A DNA stretch of 64,000 nt. It comes from an uncultured Gemmatimonadales bacterium (GTDB lineage Bacteria > Gemmatimonadota > Gemmatimonadetes > Gemmatimonadales > GWC2-71-9). A program made the translations under genes and the position numbers. The notes under the pieces were generated by a model. The model worked only from the letters and a program-made list of their open reading frames with translations, had not been told where the DNA came from and did not search any database. Shown one piece after another: positions 26,422 through 35,559 of the stretch (positions within the stretch are counted from its first letter, which is position 1; each line of letters starts with the position of its first letter). Location of the stretch: the NCBI GenBank assembly GCA_963844035.1, contig CAWJMT010000036.1, positions 1 through 64,000 on the forward strand. The letters are read 5' to 3'.

Positions 26422-27638
26422 ATGCCATCCTCCAGCAGGCGCTTCGGCGTCCTTTTTCTGACGGTGCTGATCGATCTGATCGGCTTCGGCATCGTCATCC
26501 CGATCATGCCGGGCTACGCCGTGCAATTCGGCGCGCACGGCTTCGAGTTCGGCGCGCTGCTCGGCGTGTACTCGCTGATGCAGTTCGTCGCCAACTCGAT
26601 TCTTGGGCGCTGGTCGGACCGCGTGGGACGGCGCCCGATCCTCCTCGCCACGATGCTCCTCAATGCGGTCGGGTACATCTTGTTCGCGTTCGCGGGCAGC
26701 TATTGGATGCTGCTTGCCTCCCGCGTGATCGGCGGCTTTGCGGGCGGGAACCTGGGTGTCGCCCAGGCGTACGTGGCGGACATTTCCAGCCCGGCCGAGC
26801 GGTCACGGGGCATGGGGATGCTGGGCGCGGCGTTCGGGATCGGGTTCGTGCTGGGTCCCGCGATCGGCGGCCTCGCGGGCCACTATCTCGGACGCGCCGC
26901 CCCGGGGCTCGTGGCCACTGCGCTCTCGCTCGTGAACTTCGTCTCCGCGTGGTTCATCCTCAAGGAATCGCTGCGGCCCGAGCACCGCGCCACCGAGCGG
27001 GGGTTCGGATTCGCGGCGATCGCGCGCGGCTTGGCCGACCGGCGGCTGCGCCCGCTGATGCTGGTGTGGGCCATCTTCCCGTTCGCGTTCTCCGGCTACA
27101 CCACGGCGCTGCCGCTCCACGCACTGCCGTGTTCGGCTGGGGCGTGCGCGAGCTCGGCTGGTTCTTCACGGTGTTCGGGATCACCGGCGCGTTGGTGCAG
27201 GGCTACCTGTTCGGCAAGGTGGCGCGCCGCTTTGGCGAGCGGACCCTCGTGATCATCGGAACTGCGGGCGTAGCACTCGCGATCGGCATCGTCCCGTTCG
27301 CCCACAGCTCCCTCGCCCTCTATGGATGGACCGTGGTGCTCGCGTGTGCGCAGGGGCTCGTGTCCCCCGCGGCGAGCGGTCTCGTGTCGGTGTACGCGTC
27401 GCCGAGCGAGCAAGGGGCCACGCTGGGCGCGGCTCAGGCGCTCGGGGCGCTGGGCCGGATGGTGGGCCCGGAAGCCATCGGCTGGACGTACGACGACTAC
27501 GGCGCAACGGCGGCGTTTCTGGCCGCCGCTGCGGTGATGGCGCTCGCGTGGGTCGCTACCTGGGGGTTGGAGCGTACGGGAACCGGCCGAAGGGGTGCGC
27601 CGGTCGAGGCGCCGACCGCGAGCAGCGCCGGCCCGTGA
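26422..27638 (+). CDS. MFS transporter (TetA/DHA1-like); frameshift near 27125
   Basis: DLIGFGIVIP, GRWSDRVGRRP (motif A), GFVLGPAIGG (motif C). Confidence 0.9.
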
Positions 27639-27702: not shown

Positions 27703-29803
27703 ATGCGCGTGTACAAGACCGCCGAGATCCGCAACGTGGCGGTGGCGGGCCACGGGGCAAGCGGCAAGACGTCCCTCGTCGACGCTCTCGCGTTCGTCGC
27801 CGGGACAAGTAAACGCCACGGAGCGGTAAAGGACGGCACCGCCCTCACCGACTACACCGCCGACGAAATCGAACGCAAGTACTCGATCAACCTCGCCCTC
27901 GGCGTCGCCGAGTGGATGGAAACCAAAATCAACCTGATCGACACACCGGGCTACCTCGACTTTACGGGGGATGCCCTGGCGGGCATTCACGCCGCCGACG
28001 GCGCCGCGATCGTGGTCTCGGCCACGGGCGGGGTCGAGGTGGGGACCGAGAAGGCGTGGGACTACTGCGATGCCCGCGGGCTCCCCCGGATCTTCTTCGT
28101 GTCCCTGATGGACAAGGAGCACGCCGACTTCGAGCGCGTCTACAACCAGGTCAAGGACCGCCTCACGCCGAAGGTAATTCCGGTGGAGATCCCGGTCGGT
28201 GAGGGGCCGGCATTTCACGGCATCATCAACCTCTTCTCCCGGAAGTGCCATCTGTACAAGAAGGGCACGAAACTGGGGGAGTACGACGAGGTGGAGGTCC
28301 CGGCCGAGTACGCGGAACGCTTCGAGCGGTACTCAAAGGAGCTGATGGAGCGGATCGCCGAGACCGACGACACGCTGCTCGAGCGGTACCTCGCCGGCGA
28401 GGAGATCAAGCGCGACGAGGCGATCAATGCCATGCGGGCAGGCATGGCCCGCGGGGAGATCTATCCGCTGTTCTGCGGCGCCTCGGAGCTGACCTACGGG
28501 ATGCGCGCCCTGCTCTCGAAGATCGTCGAGCTGCTCCCGGCGCCCAACGAGCGCCCGCCGGTCGAGGCCCAGAAGTGGGGCAGCGCGGAGAAGGTGACCG
28601 TCAAGGCGGACGACGCCGCGCCGTTCGCGGCCCAGGTCTTCAAGACGATTTCGGAGCCCCACGTTGGCGATGTGAGCTATTTCCGTGTGTTCTCGGGCAC
28701 AGTAAAGAACGGGCAGGATGTGTACAATGCCCCGCGCTCGGCGGTCGAGAAGCTGAACCACCTGTGCGTCGCGCTCGGCAAGGACCGCTTCGAGACGCCC
28801 GAGCTGCACGCGGGAGACATCGGCGTGGTGGCCAAACTCCGCGACACGCACACCAACGACACGCTCTCAACGCGCGAAATGCCGATCGTGCTGAAGAAGA
28901 TTCCGTTCCCCGACCCGGTGATCACCGAAGCGATCGAGGTGAAACAGCGGGGCGAGGAGGAAAAGCTGTCGACGGGCCTGCACAAGCTGCACGAAGAGGA
29001 TCCGACGTTCCAGCACGAGTACAACGGCGAGCTGGGCCAGACCCTGATCCGCGGGCTGGGGGAGCGCCACCTGGAGATCATCGTCGGGCGGCTGGCGCGG
29101 AAATTCGGCGTGCACGCCCAGATCACCAAGCCGAAGATTGCCTATCGCGAGACGTTCAAGGGAAAGGCCGAGGGCCAGGGCAAGCACAAGAAACAGACCG
29201 GCGGCCGCGGCCAGTACGGGGACTGCTGGATCCGCATTGCGGCGCTCCCGCGCGGCTCCGGGAATCCAGTTCGTGGATGAGATCGTGGGCGGGGTGATTC
29301 CGCGGCAGTACATCCCGGCCGTCGAGCGCGGGGTGCAGGAGGCGGCCGCCCGCGGCCCGATCGCGGGGTATCCCGTGGTCGATTTCAAGGTGGAGCTGTA
29401 CGACGGCTCATATCACGACGTGGATTCGAACGAGATGTCGTTCAAGATGGCCGGCATCCTCGCGTTCCGGAACGTCAGTCCCGGCGCGCGACCGACGCTG
29501 CTCGAGCCGATCCTCGAGATCGAGGTGTGGACCCCCGACGACTACCTGGGCGCCGTCATGGGCGACCTCTCGTCGCGGCGGGGCCACATCCTTGGCACCG
29601 ATCCCGACGGGCGGCATGTGAAGGTCAAGGCGCACGTTCCGGAGGCGGAGCTCGACCGCTACGCCACCACGCTGCACTCGCTGACCCACGGGCGGGGCAC
29701 GTACCGGCAGAAATTCCACATGTACCAGGAGGTGCCGCCGGAGGCCGCCCACAAGGTCGCCGAGATGCGGAAGAAGGAACTGGAGGAGGCGAAGGCGTCG
29801 TAA
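27703..29803 (+). CDS. fusA: Elongation factor G paralog (EF-G2-like); frameshift near 29265
   Basis: GHGASGKT, DTPGYLDF, KKQTGGRGQYG, GSYHDVDS, LLEPI. Confidence 0.92.
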
Positions 29804-30762: not shown

Positions 30763-31768
30763 TCACCGCGCCCCCTCGGTCACGAGCAGCACGGCGGCGC
30801 CGCGGACACGGCCCGAGCGCAGTGCGTCGAGCGCCAGGTTCGCCTGCTCGAGCGGATACGGCTCGACGCGCGTGCGGACCGGGATCGAGGCCGCGAGCGC
30901 CAGGAATTCCTCGCCGTCTTTCCGGGTGAGGTTCGCGACCGAGCGGACCACCCGTTCGCCCCACAATAACTCGTAGGGAAACGCCGGGATGTCGCTCATG
31001 TGAATGCCGGCGCACACCACCGTCCCGCCCTTCACGACGGCGCGCAGCGCGACCGGGACAAGCGCCCCGACGGGCGCGAACAGGATGCCCGCGTCGAGGG
31101 GCTCGGGAGGGGGTGTGTCCGATCCCCCTGCCCACGCAGCACCGAGCTCGAGGGCGAGTTGCTGGGCGATGGTGTCACCGGGCCGGGTGAACGCGAACAC
31201 CCGGCGACCCTGGTGCCTCGCCAGCTGCGCCACGATGTGCGCCGCCGCGCCGAAGCCGTACAGACCGAGCCGCTCAGCGTCGCCGGCGGCCACCAGGGCC
31301 CGGTACCCGATCAGCCCGGCGCACAACAGCGGTGCGGCCTCCATATCGCTGTATTGGGGCGGGAGCGCGATGGCGTAGCGGGCGTCCACGAGGGTGAAGT
31401 CGGCGTAGCCGCCGTCGATCTGGTAACCGGTGAAGCGCGCCCGGTCGCACAGATTCTCACGTCCCGCGCCGGCAATAACGGCACTCACCGCAAGTCCAGC
31501 CCAGCCACGGAACCCCCGCACGATCGCCGACCCTGAAGGCCGCGGCCGCGACGCCCGCTCCTACAGCGGCGACGGTGCCGACGATCTCGTGCCCGAGGAC
31601 CAGAGGAAGTTTCGGGTGCGGCAATTCGCCGTCGGCGACGTGGAGGTCGGTGCGACAGACGCCGCACGCGTGGACGGCGAGGAGCAGCTGGCCGGGCCCC
31701 GGCGTAGGACGCTCGACGTCGGCCGCGCGCAGCGGGCGCCTGGGAGCGTCGAGGAGCATGGCGCGCAT
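30763..31768 (-). CDS. Zinc-dependent alcohol dehydrogenase family protein; frameshift near 31470
   Basis: CGVCRTDLH, GHE, CGECRYC..ENLC, APLLCAG, GFGAAAH. Confidence 0.92.
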
Positions 31769-31782
31769 GGGGATAAACATAC

Positions 31783-31810
31783 GTAGGGGCACGACATGTC
31801 GTGCCCCTAC
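31783..31810. repeat. Perfect 28-bp palindrome, REP-like
   Basis: GTAGGGGCACGACA|TGTCGTGCCCCTAC in the intergenic gap. Confidence 0.85.
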
Positions 31811-31836: not shown

Positions 31837-32937
31837 TTACCCGACGAGCACCGGCTCGAGCATCGGCCGCTTCGCCCGGTCCTTCTTCGGCTGCTTGTAC
31901 CGGTAGATCTGCCCGGTGTAGTTCCGCAGCACGACCTCGCGGTCGGTGATCTTCACGACGTACTCGGGGAGCAGGGGGATCTTGCCGCCGCCCCCCGGGG
32001 CGTCGATCACGAAATGGGGCACGGCGAGTCCTGAGGTCCAGCCCCGCAACGCCTGAATGATTTCCAGGCCCTTCTCGATCGTCGTCCGGAAGTGCTCCGC
32101 ACCCGCCACCTGGTCGCACATGTAGATGTAGTACGGCCGCACCCGCGCGGCGAGCAGCTTCTGCATCAGCAGCTTCATCACGTCCGGATCGTCGTTCACG
32201 CCCTTGAGCAGCACCGTCTGGCAGCCGAGCGGGATGCCGGCGTCGGCGAGCATGCCGAGGGCCTTCACGGCGGCCGGGGTCAGCTCGTCGGGGTGGTTGA
32301 AGTGCGTGTTGATGTACAGCGGGTGGTAGCGCTTCAGGATCGCGCACAACTCCGGGGTGATCCGCTCCGGGAGGTGGCAGGGGATGCGGCTCCCGATTCG
32401 CAGCACTTCGAGGTGCTTGATCGATCGGAGCCGCTTGCAAATCTCATCGATCCGGCGGTCGGACAAGAGCAACGGGTCGCCACCCGACATGATCACGTCG
32501 CGGATCTCGGTGTGCTCCTCGAGATACTGGAAGGCGGACTCGAGCTGCGCCAAGGGAATCTTCGAGGGGTCGCCGACTTTGCGCCGCCGCGTGCAGAAGC
32601 GGCAGTACGTGGCACACACCGGCGAGACCAGGAAGAGCGCGCGATCGGGATAGCGGTGCGTGATGTTCGGGACCGGCGAATGCTCGTCTTCGGCGAGCGA
32701 GTCGACGATGCCGTCGTGCACCTCGAGCTCCTGGAGATCGGGCACATACTGCCGCCAGATCGGATCGCCGGGCGCCTTGATGAGGTCCACCATCGCGGGT
32801 GAGATCCGGAACTCGAAGTTCTCGGCGGCCTGCCGCAACCGTTCCAGGTCCGGGAAATTCCCGGCGCCGAAACGGTCCGCGAGCGCATCGAGAGATGCGA
32901 GGCTCTTCTTACGTAGCAGGTCCTGCCACTGCTCCAT
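31837..32937 (-). CDS. KamA-family radical SAM protein (lysine 2,3-aminomutase-like)
   Basis: THRYPDR, CATYCRFCTRRR, SGGDPL, HFNHP, QTVLLKGVND, PYY, DAPGGGGKIP (PLP Lys). Confidence 0.93.
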   Translation of the reverse strand: MEQWQDLLRKKSLASLDALADRFGAGNFPDLERLRQAAENFEFRISPAMVDLIKAPGDPIWRQYVPDLQELEVHDGIVDSLAEDEHSPVPNITHRYPDRALFLVSPVCATYCRFCTRRRKVGDPSKIPLAQLESAFQYLEEHTEIRDVIMSGGDPLLLSDRRIDEICKRLRSIKHLEVLRIGSRIPCHLPERITPELCAILKRYHPLYINTHFNHPDELTPAAVKALGMLADAGIPLGCQTVLLKGVNDDPDVMKLLMQKLLAARVRPYYIYMCDQVAGAEHFRTTIEKGLEIIQALRGWTSGLAVPHFVIDAPGGGGKIPLLPEYVVKITDREVVLRNYTGQIYRYKQPKKDRAKRPMLEPVLVG

Positions 32938-33409
32938 GCGTCAGATCCTTGAGATAGATGACCAGGTCATCGCCCAGGGCGTAGTACGCCTCGATCCTGG
33001 CGGTCCTGGCATACCCGCGCCGCTCGTAAAACGCGCGCGTCGGGGCGTAGTCCTCTCGCGACGACGTTTCCACCACGATCAACCGGCACCCTGCGCCGCG
33101 CAGCCGCTGCTCCACTGCGTTCAGCAGCTCGGTACCGATGCCTCGCCGCTGCCGTGCCGGGTCCACGACGATCCAGTAGAGATCGCAGGTCCCCGTGGTC
33201 CCGGGCGTCTCCCCCCAGCACGCGTAACCCAGGAGGTCGTCGCCGTCATATGCGCCGAGGAACTGGTAGTCCTCGTCCCCGGCGAGACTCTCGTCCAGCA
33301 ACTCCAGCGCGGTGGCCACCTCCTCCGGCCGGAACCGGCCGGTGGCCGCCGTCAGCTGCTCAAGTCGTGCGCGCTGCGCGCGACCGACGGGCCGGAGCGA
33401 GCAGCTCAC
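32909..33409 (-). CDS. GNAT N-acetyltransferase
   Basis: DLYWIVVDPARQRRGIGT, VETSS, TRAFYERRGY. Confidence 0.9.
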   Translation of the reverse strand: MSCSLRPVGRAQRARLEQLTAATGRFRPEEVATALELLDESLAGDEDYQFLGAYDGDDLLGYACWGETPGTTGTCDLYWIVVDPARQRRGIGTELLNAVEQRLRGAGCRLIVVETSSREDYAPTRAFYERRGYARTARIEAYYALGDDLVIYLKDLTHGAVAGPAT

Positions 33410-34379
33410 GTGCAGCCTTGGCGCCCTGCGCTTCGCGGAGGGCGACCTCGGCGATGCGACGGATGAGTTCGGGGTACGCCCACCCGGCCGCCCGCGCCAT
33501 CCGCGACAGGCCGGCGTCGTCGTTCAAATCCGGATTCGGGTTGACGTCCAGCACCCAGGGGCGTCCTTGCTCGTCTACCCGCAGGTCGACGCGGCCGTAG
33601 CCCTTCCCCTGCATCGCCCGCCAGGCGGCGTCGGCAACCTTGACGATGCGGTCGGCGAGCTTCTGGGGCACGTTCGCCGGGCACACCGGGACGCTGCCCA
33701 TGTCTTCGGGAGAGCCCGTGTCCCACTTTGCCGCATAGGTGAGGATCGGCCAGTTGCCCGCCGGCATCCCGGAGAAATCGATCTCGGCGATCGGCAACAC
33801 GCGGTCCCCGACGAATCCGACGTTGAATTCGCGGCCCGCGATGTATTCCTGCACGACCACTTCCTCGAACTGCTCGGTCATCGCCGCCACGCGAGCGCGC
33901 AGCGCCTTCCGGTCGGTCACCACCGAGCCGCGGTCCAGCCCGGCGCTCGCGTCCTCGGCGGCGGGCTTGACGATGGCGGGAAGGGGGAAATCGTCCTCGA
34001 TCTTCCCCTGCGCCATGGTCCAGCGGGGGATCGGGATACCCGCCTGGGCCAGGATGGCGTTGGCGATCGTCTTGCGCCGGCACGCGCCGAGGGTAAAGAC
34101 GCCGGCACCGGTCACCGGCACACCGGCGAACTCGAGCGTCGCGACAACGTGCTCCTCCCACTCGCTGCGCCCGTGCACGCCCTCACAGAGATTGAACGCG
34201 AGATCGGCGGCGCGCGCGGTCCGCAGCCAGCGCATGTCGTGGCGCACAGGGACCTTGCGGACCGCATGGCCGAGCGCGCTGAAGATGCGCCCGACCTCGC
34301 CGACCGCCTTCAGGACGCCCCGAATGTCCTGCGGCGTCCAGTCGTCCGCACCGGGATCATAGAGGAGGACAACCCTCAC
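33360..34379 (-). CDS. D-Ala-D-Ala ligase-like ATP-grasp protein
   Basis: GTG start overlapping the upstream TGA; FNLCEG, VKPAAEDAS, EYIAGREF, YAAKW, RVDLR, VNPNP. Confidence 0.88.
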   Translation of the reverse strand: MRVVLLYDPGADDWTPQDIRGVLKAVGEVGRIFSALGHAVRKVPVRHDMRWLRTARAADLAFNLCEGVHGRSEWEEHVVATLEFAGVPVTGAGVFTLGACRRKTIANAILAQAGIPIPRWTMAQGKIEDDFPLPAIVKPAAEDASAGLDRGSVVTDRKALRARVAAMTEQFEEVVVQEYIAGREFNVGFVGDRVLPIAEIDFSGMPAGNWPILTYAAKWDTGSPEDMGSVPVCPANVPQKLADRIVKVADAAWRAMQGKGYGRVDLRVDEQGRPWVLDVNPNPDLNDDAGLSRMARAAGWAYPELIRRIAEVALREAQGAKAARELLAPARRSRAARTT

Positions 34380-35455
34380 GCGTGTGCTCCCGCCGGCTGG
34401 GGCGCCGCCGGCAGAGCGCCGGTCGTGACGGCCAGGTCCTGCCCCGTCAGGCGCCGCCACGCGATCTGCACGACTTCCTGTATCAGCTCGTCGTACGACA
34501 TCCCGGCCGCCCGGGCGGCCTTGGGGAAGCACGAGTTCATCGCGGGGTCGGGAATGATGCCGGGCAAGGGATTCAGCTCGAGCACGTTCGGTACGCCGAA
34601 CCGGTCCACGCGGATGTCCACGCGGCACCAGTCGCGGCACCCGAGGGCGTGGTAGGCGTCGAGCGCGGTCCGCTCGATTTCCCGGTAGAGCGAGGGCGCC
34701 ACGGGGGCGGGGCATTTGAAGATCGCGAGCGGCCGCTCCGGCGTGTCCCAGATCCACTTGGCCTCGTAGCCGTACACCGGCGGCGCCCCCGGCGGGAGCG
34801 CGGAGAAGTCGAAGCCGATGACGGGGAGGCAATAGGCCGCGGGACCATTGCCGAGGATCGCGACGGTGAACTCGGGGCCCGGGAGGTAGGTCTCGACGAT
34901 CACCGGCTCCGCGTACTGCTCGAGCAGCATGAACGTGCGCTCTTCGAGCTGCGAGGGCGATTCGCAGACGTTGTCGCTGAAGACGCCCTTACCCGACCCT
35001 TCCGCAATCGGCTTCACGAACACCGGGTAGGGCAGCACCACGCGCTCCAGGTCCGCGACGCGCTCGACGCACGCGAACGGCGCGGTAGGAACGCCGCGGT
35101 ATGCGAGCAATTCCTTCGCGCGGCCTTTATGGAGCGAAAGGCCCAGGGCGAGTGGGTCGCTGCCGGTGTAGCGGATGTTCAGGAATTCGCAGATCGCGGG
35201 GACCAGGGACTCACGGGCTTGCCCATGCAATCCCTCAGCCATGTTGAAGACGATGTCGGGACGGGCCAATGCGAGCTTGTGTGGGAATGCGGCGTCTGCT
35301 TCCAGCCGGATGACGCGTCCGAACCGACTGAGCGCCTGCGCCACCGCGTCGATCGTGAGCGGCTCATCCCACTCGGCGAATGCGTCGGTGGTACTCGGAG
35401 GCTCGTCGGGAGAGCTGGGATCCGGCTTCTGGTTGTACGCGAGACCGATGCGCAT
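34376..35455 (-). CDS. D-Ala-D-Ala ligase-like ATP-grasp protein
   Basis: FNMAEG, YTGSDP, VKPIAEGSGKG, YEAKW, RVDIR, ELNPLPG. Confidence 0.9.
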   Translation of the reverse strand: MRIGLAYNQKPDPSSPDEPPSTTDAFAEWDEPLTIDAVAQALSRFGRVIRLEADAAFPHKLALARPDIVFNMAEGLHGQARESLVPAICEFLNIRYTGSDPLALGLSLHKGRAKELLAYRGVPTAPFACVERVADLERVVLPYPVFVKPIAEGSGKGVFSDNVCESPSQLEERTFMLLEQYAEPVIVETYLPGPEFTVAILGNGPAAYCLPVIGFDFSALPPGAPPVYGYEAKWIWDTPERPLAIFKCPAPVAPSLYREIERTALDAYHALGCRDWCRVDIRVDRFGVPNVLELNPLPGIIPDPAMNSCFPKAARAAGMSYDELIQEVVQIAWRRLTGQDLAVTTGALPAAPQPAGAHA

Positions 35456-35477
35456 GTGGTCTCGGGTGACCTCCTAC

Positions 35478-35503
35478 AAAAAAGGCCGCGCAGATCGCGG
35501 TCT
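35478..35503 (-). terminator. Terminator-like hairpin plus U6 in the 5' leader of the ATP-grasp/KamA operon
   Basis: The minus strand reads AGACCGCG-ATCTG-CGCGGCC-TTTTTT, directly followed by GTAGGAGG (SD). Confidence 0.5.
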
Positions 35504-35530
35504 GGAGATGAGTGAAGCGTTGTCGGATAC

Positions 35531-35559
35531 ACAATATGAAAAAGCGAAGAGATGCGCAA
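35531..35559 (-). promoter_or_regulatory. Sigma70-like promoter
   Basis: TTGCGC-N17-TATTGT in an AT-rich patch. Confidence 0.55.

Follow-up and report, generated by a model that had tools for sequence, protein, structure and literature searches.

What might two ATP-grasp enzymes that resemble D-alanine–D-alanine ligase (Ddl) make when their genes overlap those of an acetyltransferase and an aminomutase? The question is raised by a 64,000-nt stretch of contig CAWJMT010000036.1 (assembly GCA_963844035.1) from an uncultured Gemmatimonadales bacterium, which as a whole we call the window. On its minus strand lie four overlapping open reading frames (ORFs) encoding, in order, ligase A, ligase B, a GNAT-family acetyltransferase and a KamA-family enzyme, with overlaps of 4, 50 and 29 nt. 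Gene identities were assigned with Pfam and NCBIfam models and their curated cut-offs. A first-pass annotation of the locus had described four overlapping genes free of mur, van, efp/epmA or lysine-fermentation neighbours, and the ORF and neighbour scans bear this out, none of these genes being found among the ten or eleven neighbouring ORFs scanned. Of its interpretation, one part is supported by the evidence presented below: the genes make up a conserved unit for amide-bond formation from a beta-amino acid, distinct from Ddl, AblAB and EpmAB. We think it probable that the product is a small amide containing beta-lysine. The fuller reading, in which the operon would make a beta-lysyl-(poly)amine amide with reversible acetylation, has in our estimate about an even chance of being correct.

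Conservation of the operon and its aminomutase

The order A-B-GNAT-KamA recurs in 72 of 80 related Gemmatimonadales loci, and a contig end intervenes in the other eight. The closest relatives are nearly all Gemmatimonadota. A more distant sample came from a metagenome scan with a distant B alignment, from which the best 80 of 591 confirmed loci were taken and their gene content read by tblastn. All four genes are present in 26 of these 80, where B is 33-43% identical to the window's B; KamA is found in 55. Another 21 combine the ligase pair with KamA, the GNAT lying outside the fetched stretch or missing (A, B and KamA in 17; A and KamA in four). B stands alone in 13 loci, eight of which have a different neighbour and were not counted as operon copies; the six of them placed in our ligase tree, a quick version, form a separate paralogue clade. 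The four genes are found together in both samples and their association is not due to chance; the first-pass annotation had made its proposal hang on their joint conservation. Members that could be named belong to Myxococcota, Thermopirellula, Thermoanaerobaculia, Longimicrobiales, Competibacteraceae, Desulfobacterales and Alphaproteobacteria. The operon did not turn up in plasmid searches, whose sole matches were subfamily relatives at 32-37% identity, and scans of viral contigs gave nothing useful on it. One lineage (L158, L164 and about 20 similar loci) has a sensor kinase and sigma-54-type response regulators between A and KamA-B, with no GNAT nearby.

To see which parts travel together, the same 151 Gemmatimonadota genomes were searched for B, the GNAT, the operon KamA and a longer KamA; kin genomes are not independent, and co-occurrence is given as counts. 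A B orthologue is present in 74 genomes (E <= 2e-70; next best 8e-57), and the GNAT in 75, namely the same 74 plus one weak hit. Operon-type KamA, at no less than 67% identity, occurs in 64 of the 74 genomes with B (one copy is split) and in none of the 77 others. The longer KamA, a 462-aa protein of another subfamily, is found in ten genomes of the window's family: nine have A-B-GNAT without the operon KamA (one of these hits is partial), and the tenth has neither B nor the GNAT. In the remaining genome of the 74 the contig ends right after the GNAT. Long KamA was found in none of the 64 genomes with the operon type, so that no genome has both. The swap probably happened more than once, since five genera show it and two of these also include sister genomes with the operon KamA. 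In genome G143 the long KamA lies directly behind the GNAT; elsewhere it sits in a cluster with an aminotransferase, CoA-transferase subunits and a permease. From this replacement in trans we infer that the ligases need a diffusible product of KamA.

The long subfamily itself (L129:4902-6290; L128:3252-11487) has no Pfam match at 1e-5. Its usual cluster partners are a class III aminotransferase, CoA-transferase subunits, a regulator and an APC permease, and the cluster is likely a lysine catabolic route.

Which amino acid does the operon KamA, the only KamA found in its own genome, rearrange? It scores above the cut-off of the general family model TIGR00238 (287.4 bits against 199.2). The best of five specific models is that of AblA, TIGR03820, reached below cut-off (445.6/525.4); the glutamate (TIGR04368, 393.4/650), arginine (TIGR04468, 318.9/600) and EpmB (232.7/369.3) models are also under theirs. 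The protein aligns to the solved lysine 2,3-aminomutase 2A5H at E 3e-107, keeps the CxxxCxxC motif and the pyridoxal phosphate (PLP) lysine, and is about 50 residues shorter. D293, D330 and K337 of 2A5H correspond to D275, D312 and K319 in the window, and both the operon and the long KamA type keep all three. Both Asp equivalents are found in the eight most frequent motif variants, which account for 36 and 46 of the 50 aligned KamA rows. Asp293 and Asp330 are the ligands of the lysine side-chain amine. The three retained residues, together with the top score of the lysine model, make beta-lysine the likely product, and the short KamA, judged from its sequence, is likely a lysine 2,3-aminomutase supplying it. 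The enzyme might instead act on glutamate, arginine or ornithine, giving a beta-glutamyl or beta-arginyl amide; its score under the AblA cut-off, its shorter length and the arginine-decarboxylase genes that adjoin some copies would suit such a substrate. However, the glutamate and arginine models score lower than the lysine model, and both of the Asps that bind the lysine side-chain amine are retained, which makes another substrate quite improbable. The first-pass annotation had left the choice between beta-lysine and beta-glutamate; the former is favoured, with the side-chain residues of 2A5H kept. A full-length KamA in a different context, upstream of a gene that joins a sodium:solute symporter to a GNAT domain, was seen at L141:2204-5769.

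The ligase pockets and the predicted acceptor

By sequence and fold, the close solved relatives of both ligases are all Ddl or Van enzymes, and the model of B (predicted local distance difference test, pLDDT, 95.4) has its best fold matches all among Ddl structures, at 16-26% identity. We compared 44 A-type and about 73 B-type rows in the residue numbering of E. coli DdlB, taking K97, K144, K215, R255, D257, E270 and N272 to be catalytic and H63, S150, Y216, G276 and S281 to form the D-Ala pocket. The catalytic equivalents are invariant in all A-type rows and invariant or nearly so in the B-type rows, the window's own B having Asp for E270. With the residues for ATP and acyl-phosphate kept, both ligases look active.

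The pocket has changed. The His63 region has become an FNxxE loop in both proteins, and Tyr216 is Trp in both, or Arg in some A. Ligase A keeps Gly149-Ser150, Gly276 and mostly Ser281, and has the conserved basic residues R81 and K156. Ligase B has Asp at positions 149 and 276 in 100% of B-type rows, Ala or Gly at 150 and mostly Ala at 281. From these residues, A is predicted to take an amino-acid, that is carboxylate-bearing, acceptor and B a cationic amine free of a carboxylate; the pattern would fit a diamino-acid donor. Fusions of B with the GNAT and of A with B are present among the 150 best representatives, and the latter make an A/B heterodimer plausible.

Given their fold and the shared residues for ATP, Mg and acyl-phosphate, the two proteins could be spare or Van-type D-Ala-D-X ligases for peptidoglycan termini, and the depositors of 2R7H, an orthologue of the GNAT, named it a putative D-alanine N-acetyltransferase. 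Against the Ddl models NF002378 and TIGR01205, however, A scores 167.8/243 and 134.5/245.65 bits and B 135.1/243 and 117.3/245.65, all under the cut-offs; both are also far below the Van cut-offs. A true Ddl is encoded elsewhere in the genome (302.2 and 273.8 bits, over both). With His63 and Tyr216 replaced, no van genes alongside and strict dependence on KamA, we give a role at peptidoglycan termini very little credence. Replacement of Ddl was rejected on the sub-threshold Ddl and Van scores and the true Ddl.

The case for a cationic amine acceptor comes from the acidic pockets, marked by the FNxxE loop of both ligases and B's invariant Asps, the polyamine-gene neighbours of distant copies and the GNAT-deacetylase fusions described below. 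In seven of the 80 distant loci a pyruvoyl arginine decarboxylase (ADC) lies just upstream of A, with an agmatinase in five; one of the seven, L151, also has a deoxyhypusine-synthase-family gene and a third ATP-grasp gene. Four of the seven loci run for several kilobases downstream without KamA. At locus L203 a group IV PLP decarboxylase lies between B and KamA. We regard a cationic amine as acceptor as an evenly poised call, and a polyamine in particular as a tentative one, less probable than its absence.

Several observations weigh against a polyamine. The six ADC-linked A proteins included in the tree group as a single clade (support 94) with two sub-lineages, 53-61% identical and differently flanked, so the link may be a single event. 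Within Gemmatimonadota no obligate link to a pyruvoyl ADC was found (32 of 74 operon genomes, 17 of 77 others); no agmatinase was found in the window's own genome, which is 84% complete, and no polyamine gene lies beside the operon in the window. A second beta-lysine or a protein lysine would suit the acidic pockets no less than a polyamine: beta-lysine contains a 1,4-diamine, like putrescine, and the pockets may therefore simply bind a second beta-lysine. The connection of the deacetylase fusions to the operon, moreover, runs through homology of the GNAT.

Other members of the ligase subfamily occur in different company. The low-GC locus L203:5774-11879, probably archaeal to judge from its SRP54 neighbour, encodes A, B, a 441-aa protein without a family match, the group IV decarboxylase and KamA, with no GNAT. 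In the window's own genome, a third Ddl-like ligase of the B subfamily (G000:C1:90549-93858; L093:6547-9859) overlaps a double-zinc-ribbon/Peptidase_Mx gene and follows a homospermidine-biosynthesis (deoxyhypusine-synthase-like) gene; this is a separate, uncharacterised ligase-peptidase pair, and the homospermidine gene carries no weight because another gene intervenes in a relative. A further B-type paralogue clade (L235:1330-3407, L236, L239, L166, L185, L191, L194, L214, L219, L224, L228) adjoins a protein of about 260-300 aa that has no Pfam or NCBIfam match and a conserved cysteine motif in its N-terminal region, presumably a peptidase-like protein. Two proteins, P0151 and P0243, fuse a B-type ligase to DUF3109, which is N-terminal in one and C-terminal in the other. 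On Thioflavicoccus mobilis plasmid pTHIMO01 (L126:2557-8038), a single subfamily ligase is accompanied by sbnA, an ornithine-cyclodeaminase-family gene, a diaminobutyrate transaminase and a convergent KamA; this is a separate diamino-acid amide cluster.

Predicted acetylation and the candidate product

The GNAT is an orthologue of Dde_3044 of Desulfovibrio G20, solved as PDB 2R7H (E 1.5e-35; 42-45% identity; TM 0.87-0.94). The name deposited with that structure hints at a Ddl-like neighbour. For Dde_3044 there is a structure only, and we found no functional study of it in the literature. Conserved residues of the GNAT include six acidic and two basic ones, and the protein is predicted from its sequence to be an amine N-acetyltransferase. 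It is not AblB: the 266-position AblB model TIGR03827 matches neither the GNAT nor anything else in the 84% complete genome. Among 120 long GNAT homologues, 82 are fused to a ligase and 34 to an acetylpolyamine-amidohydrolase-type domain, whose best PDB matches are 9GKZ, 6PHR and 3Q9B (E 6e-76 to 6e-64, compared with about 1e-36 for single histone deacetylase domains); the two kinds of fusion interleave in a tree. An acetylpolyamine amidohydrolase cluster is reported to deacetylate acetylputrescine and related compounds (PMC11532494). Several operons lack the GNAT, and other lineages have it joined to a deacetylase; acetylation would accordingly appear to be reversible and optional.

How might the four proteins work together? 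The aminomutase would supply free beta-lysine, and A and B would couple it, through ATP-dependent amide-bond formation, to a cationic amine, probably a diamine or polyamine, or else a second beta-lysine. Ligase A may build a beta-lysyl-amino-acid bond and B may then transfer the acyl unit to the cationic amine, the two perhaps working as a heterodimer. The GNAT would add a removable N-acetyl cap, serving as a charge switch or for self-protection rather than as a committed biosynthetic step. In its most specific form, a heterodimeric A/B ligase would make beta-lysyl or oligo-beta-lysyl polyamines whose charge is switched by the GNAT and a deacetylase, which is possible at well under an even chance.

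The first-pass annotation had proposed an acylated beta-amino-acid di- or tripeptide serving as osmolyte, signal or cell-wall modifier. Read as an osmolyte made of amino acids only, this is not supported: B's invariant Asps, the polyamine-gene neighbours, the optional GNAT and the deacetylase fusion point elsewhere. On that reading the product would be a compatible solute like N-acetylglutaminylglutamine amide (NAGGN), for which the GNAT would acetylate beta-lysine or another amino acid and the ligases would build a zwitterionic or neutral acetylated di- or tripeptide. That 82 of the 120 long homologues fuse the GNAT with ligase B recalls Ngg, a single protein that does both N-acetylation and peptide-bond formation (PMC8070244), and an archaeal KamA and acetyltransferase make a salt-induced osmolyte (PMC11337218); A also keeps the Ser281 position and conserved basic residues. 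On the other hand, 21 of the 80 metagenome loci with ligases and KamA show no GNAT within the fetched stretch (the gene may be encoded elsewhere in the genome), the protein is no AblB and is deacetylase-fused in other lineages, and the pocket of B is acidic. We consider such a solute unlikely.

A beta-lysyl amide of a cationic amine, our preferred product, would have its closest analogue in phevamine A, for which a pair of ATP-grasp enzymes, acting in turn, attaches amino acids to a spermidine derivative (PMC6187163). The HsvA, HsvB and HsvC pathway shares with the operon two ATP-grasp enzymes in one operon, one tailoring enzyme and no non-ribosomal peptide synthetase (NRPS). It differs in that the operon likely uses beta-lysine from a radical S-adenosylmethionine enzyme, and in that a GNAT replaces the amidinotransferase; no HsvA was found among the four genes or the scanned neighbours. 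The operon's ligases are of the Ddl clade, and in contrast to the phevamine A virulence locus the operon seems to be a core trait of lineages from soil and sediment.

Like AblA and AblB (PMC11337218), the operon pairs a lysine 2,3-aminomutase with an acetyltransferase. Its 166-aa GNAT has no match to the AblB model, however, two ligases are added, and its KamA is below the AblA cut-off; an AblAB pathway was rejected. NAGGN synthesis by Ngg and AsnO (PMC8070244) likewise couples N-acetylation to a non-ribosomal peptide bond, and ligase-GNAT fusions are common here. The operon differs in its two ligases, beta-amino-acid supply, acidic pockets, seemingly optional and reversible acetylation and lack of an amidotransferase; no AsnO was seen among the annotated recurrent neighbour clusters of the 80 metagenome loci or beside the window's operon. 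From phevamine A, AblAB and NAGGN synthesis alike, the operon departs in one defining respect each.

Expression signals, surroundings and significance

The coordinates of the genes and signals are collected in Table 1.

Table 1. Operon genes and expression signals in the window
Feature	Positions	Strand	Size	Assignment or basis
Ligase A	35455-34376	(-)	359 aa	Pfam Dala_Dala_lig_C
Ligase B	34379-33360	(-)	339 aa	Pfam Dala_Dala_lig_C
GNAT	33409-32909	(-)	166 aa, start placed to within a few codons	Pfam Acetyltransf_1
KamA-family enzyme	32937-31837	(-)	366 aa	Pfam Radical_SAM + LAM_C
-35 hexamer, sigma-70-like operon promoter	35554..35559	(-)		conserved in relatives' thyX-to-A spacers
-10 hexamer, operon promoter	35531..35536	(-)		conserved in relatives' thyX-to-A spacers
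5' leader	35456..35530	(-)	~75 nt	conserved; hairpins, U-tract, Shine-Dalgarno
Hairpin after KamA stop, probable terminator	31783..31810	(-)	12 bp	position

The promoter pattern is present in 73 of 78 thyX-to-A spacers, with 17 nt between the -35 and -10 hexamers in 72 of the 73; its strict form occurs twice in the 3.47-Mb genome, and a consensus promoter scan gave the conserved site no score. In 30 of the 73 relatives the leader has been deleted outright and the ATG lies 8-11 nt past the -10 hexamer, which supports the conserved promoter as real. The other 43 have a leader, mostly 71-80 nt long. In the window it contains a short hairpin (35502-35484), a U-tract, a Shine-Dalgarno sequence (35475-35470) and a second small hairpin over the end of the latter. 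About 30 columns are invariant across 38 aligned leaders, and one stem pair is altered on both sides in ten of the 38, which are likely kin; most pairs are invariant. Folding energy was no better than that of shuffles (z -0.3 to -1.5), and the leader has no match in Rfam. Judged from its sequence, it is possibly an attenuator or translation switch, in which alternative pairings could hide the Shine-Dalgarno sequence. The hairpin behind KamA probably closes the operon; it is read as a terminator from its position, not from the site count, three terminator-like sites having been found against a shuffle mean of 1.7. Metatranscriptome contigs of relatives contain parts of all four genes, with small word shares and as contigs only, and were not counted as evidence of expression.

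Could the ligases act on a macromolecule instead, placing beta-lysine, singly or as a chain, on a protein, a cell-wall component or a lipid, with the GNAT as cap? The all-or-none presence of the operon and its constitutive-looking, often leaderless promoter would suit a housekeeping modification, and a lysine side chain also fits the acidic pockets. The Ddl fold closes over small substrates, and across lineages neither a mur gene nor a substrate gene is a recurrent neighbour of the operon. Some ATP-grasp enzymes do modify proteins (PMC4431377). Elongation factor P (EF-P) is a candidate, as KamA-family EpmB provides beta-lysine for ligation by EpmA (PMC6522883). In contrast to that system, no EpmA was found: the best EpmA-family match in the genome is lysyl-tRNA synthetase (LysRS), below cut-off, and the operon's ligases are ATP-grasp enzymes and not LysRS-like. 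The tip of EF-P has no lysine in the window's own genome and in 12 other operon-bearing genomes examined. An additional EF-P with a lysine tip occurs in three more operon genomes and also in four without the operon, and so does not track it. EF-P was rejected as the ligases' target on these grounds and is excluded as a general one; modification of some other macromolecule we judge improbable.

The operon is flanked upstream by thyX and an FAD-linked oxidase gene and downstream by a zinc alcohol dehydrogenase gene. In the window, genes for a major facilitator superfamily transporter (26422-27638), an elongation factor G-like protein (27703-29803) and a zinc dehydrogenase (30763-31770) are each broken over two frames; since relatives match the elongation factor G-like gene, assembly indels are the likely cause. 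Elsewhere in this GC-rich genome, a biotin-carboxylase gene (G000:C4:424854-426030) stands out by its high content of Lys, Ile and Asn, a possible case of contamination or recent transfer.

Taken together, the operon is probably a variant of NRPS-independent ATP-grasp amide synthesis whose product has probably not yet been identified. The first-pass annotation had known of no assigned product, and we likewise found neither a description of the operon nor a product in the literature searched, outside of which most subscription papers lie. About half of the sampled Gemmatimonadota genomes bear the operon, and homologues of its parts are known by name from Myxococcota, Planctomycetota, Acidobacteriota, Desulfobacterales, Desulfovibrio and Proteobacteria. 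With beta-lysine and diamines or polyamines as shortlisted substrates, three soluble enzymes allow a direct test for a beta-lysyl amide, and the GNAT orthologue is encoded by a laboratory organism, Desulfovibrio G20. If correct, our reading would explain why many non-fermenting, non-halophilic bacteria have a lysine 2,3-aminomutase but neither EpmA nor AblB. It would also correct a large block of proteins annotated as D-alanine–D-alanine ligase and give PDB 2R7H a function. Should the acceptor prove to be a polyamine, the products would be endogenous polycations of a new class, made by abundant bacteria of soils and sediments, and their synthesis might be under the control of a leader RNA.

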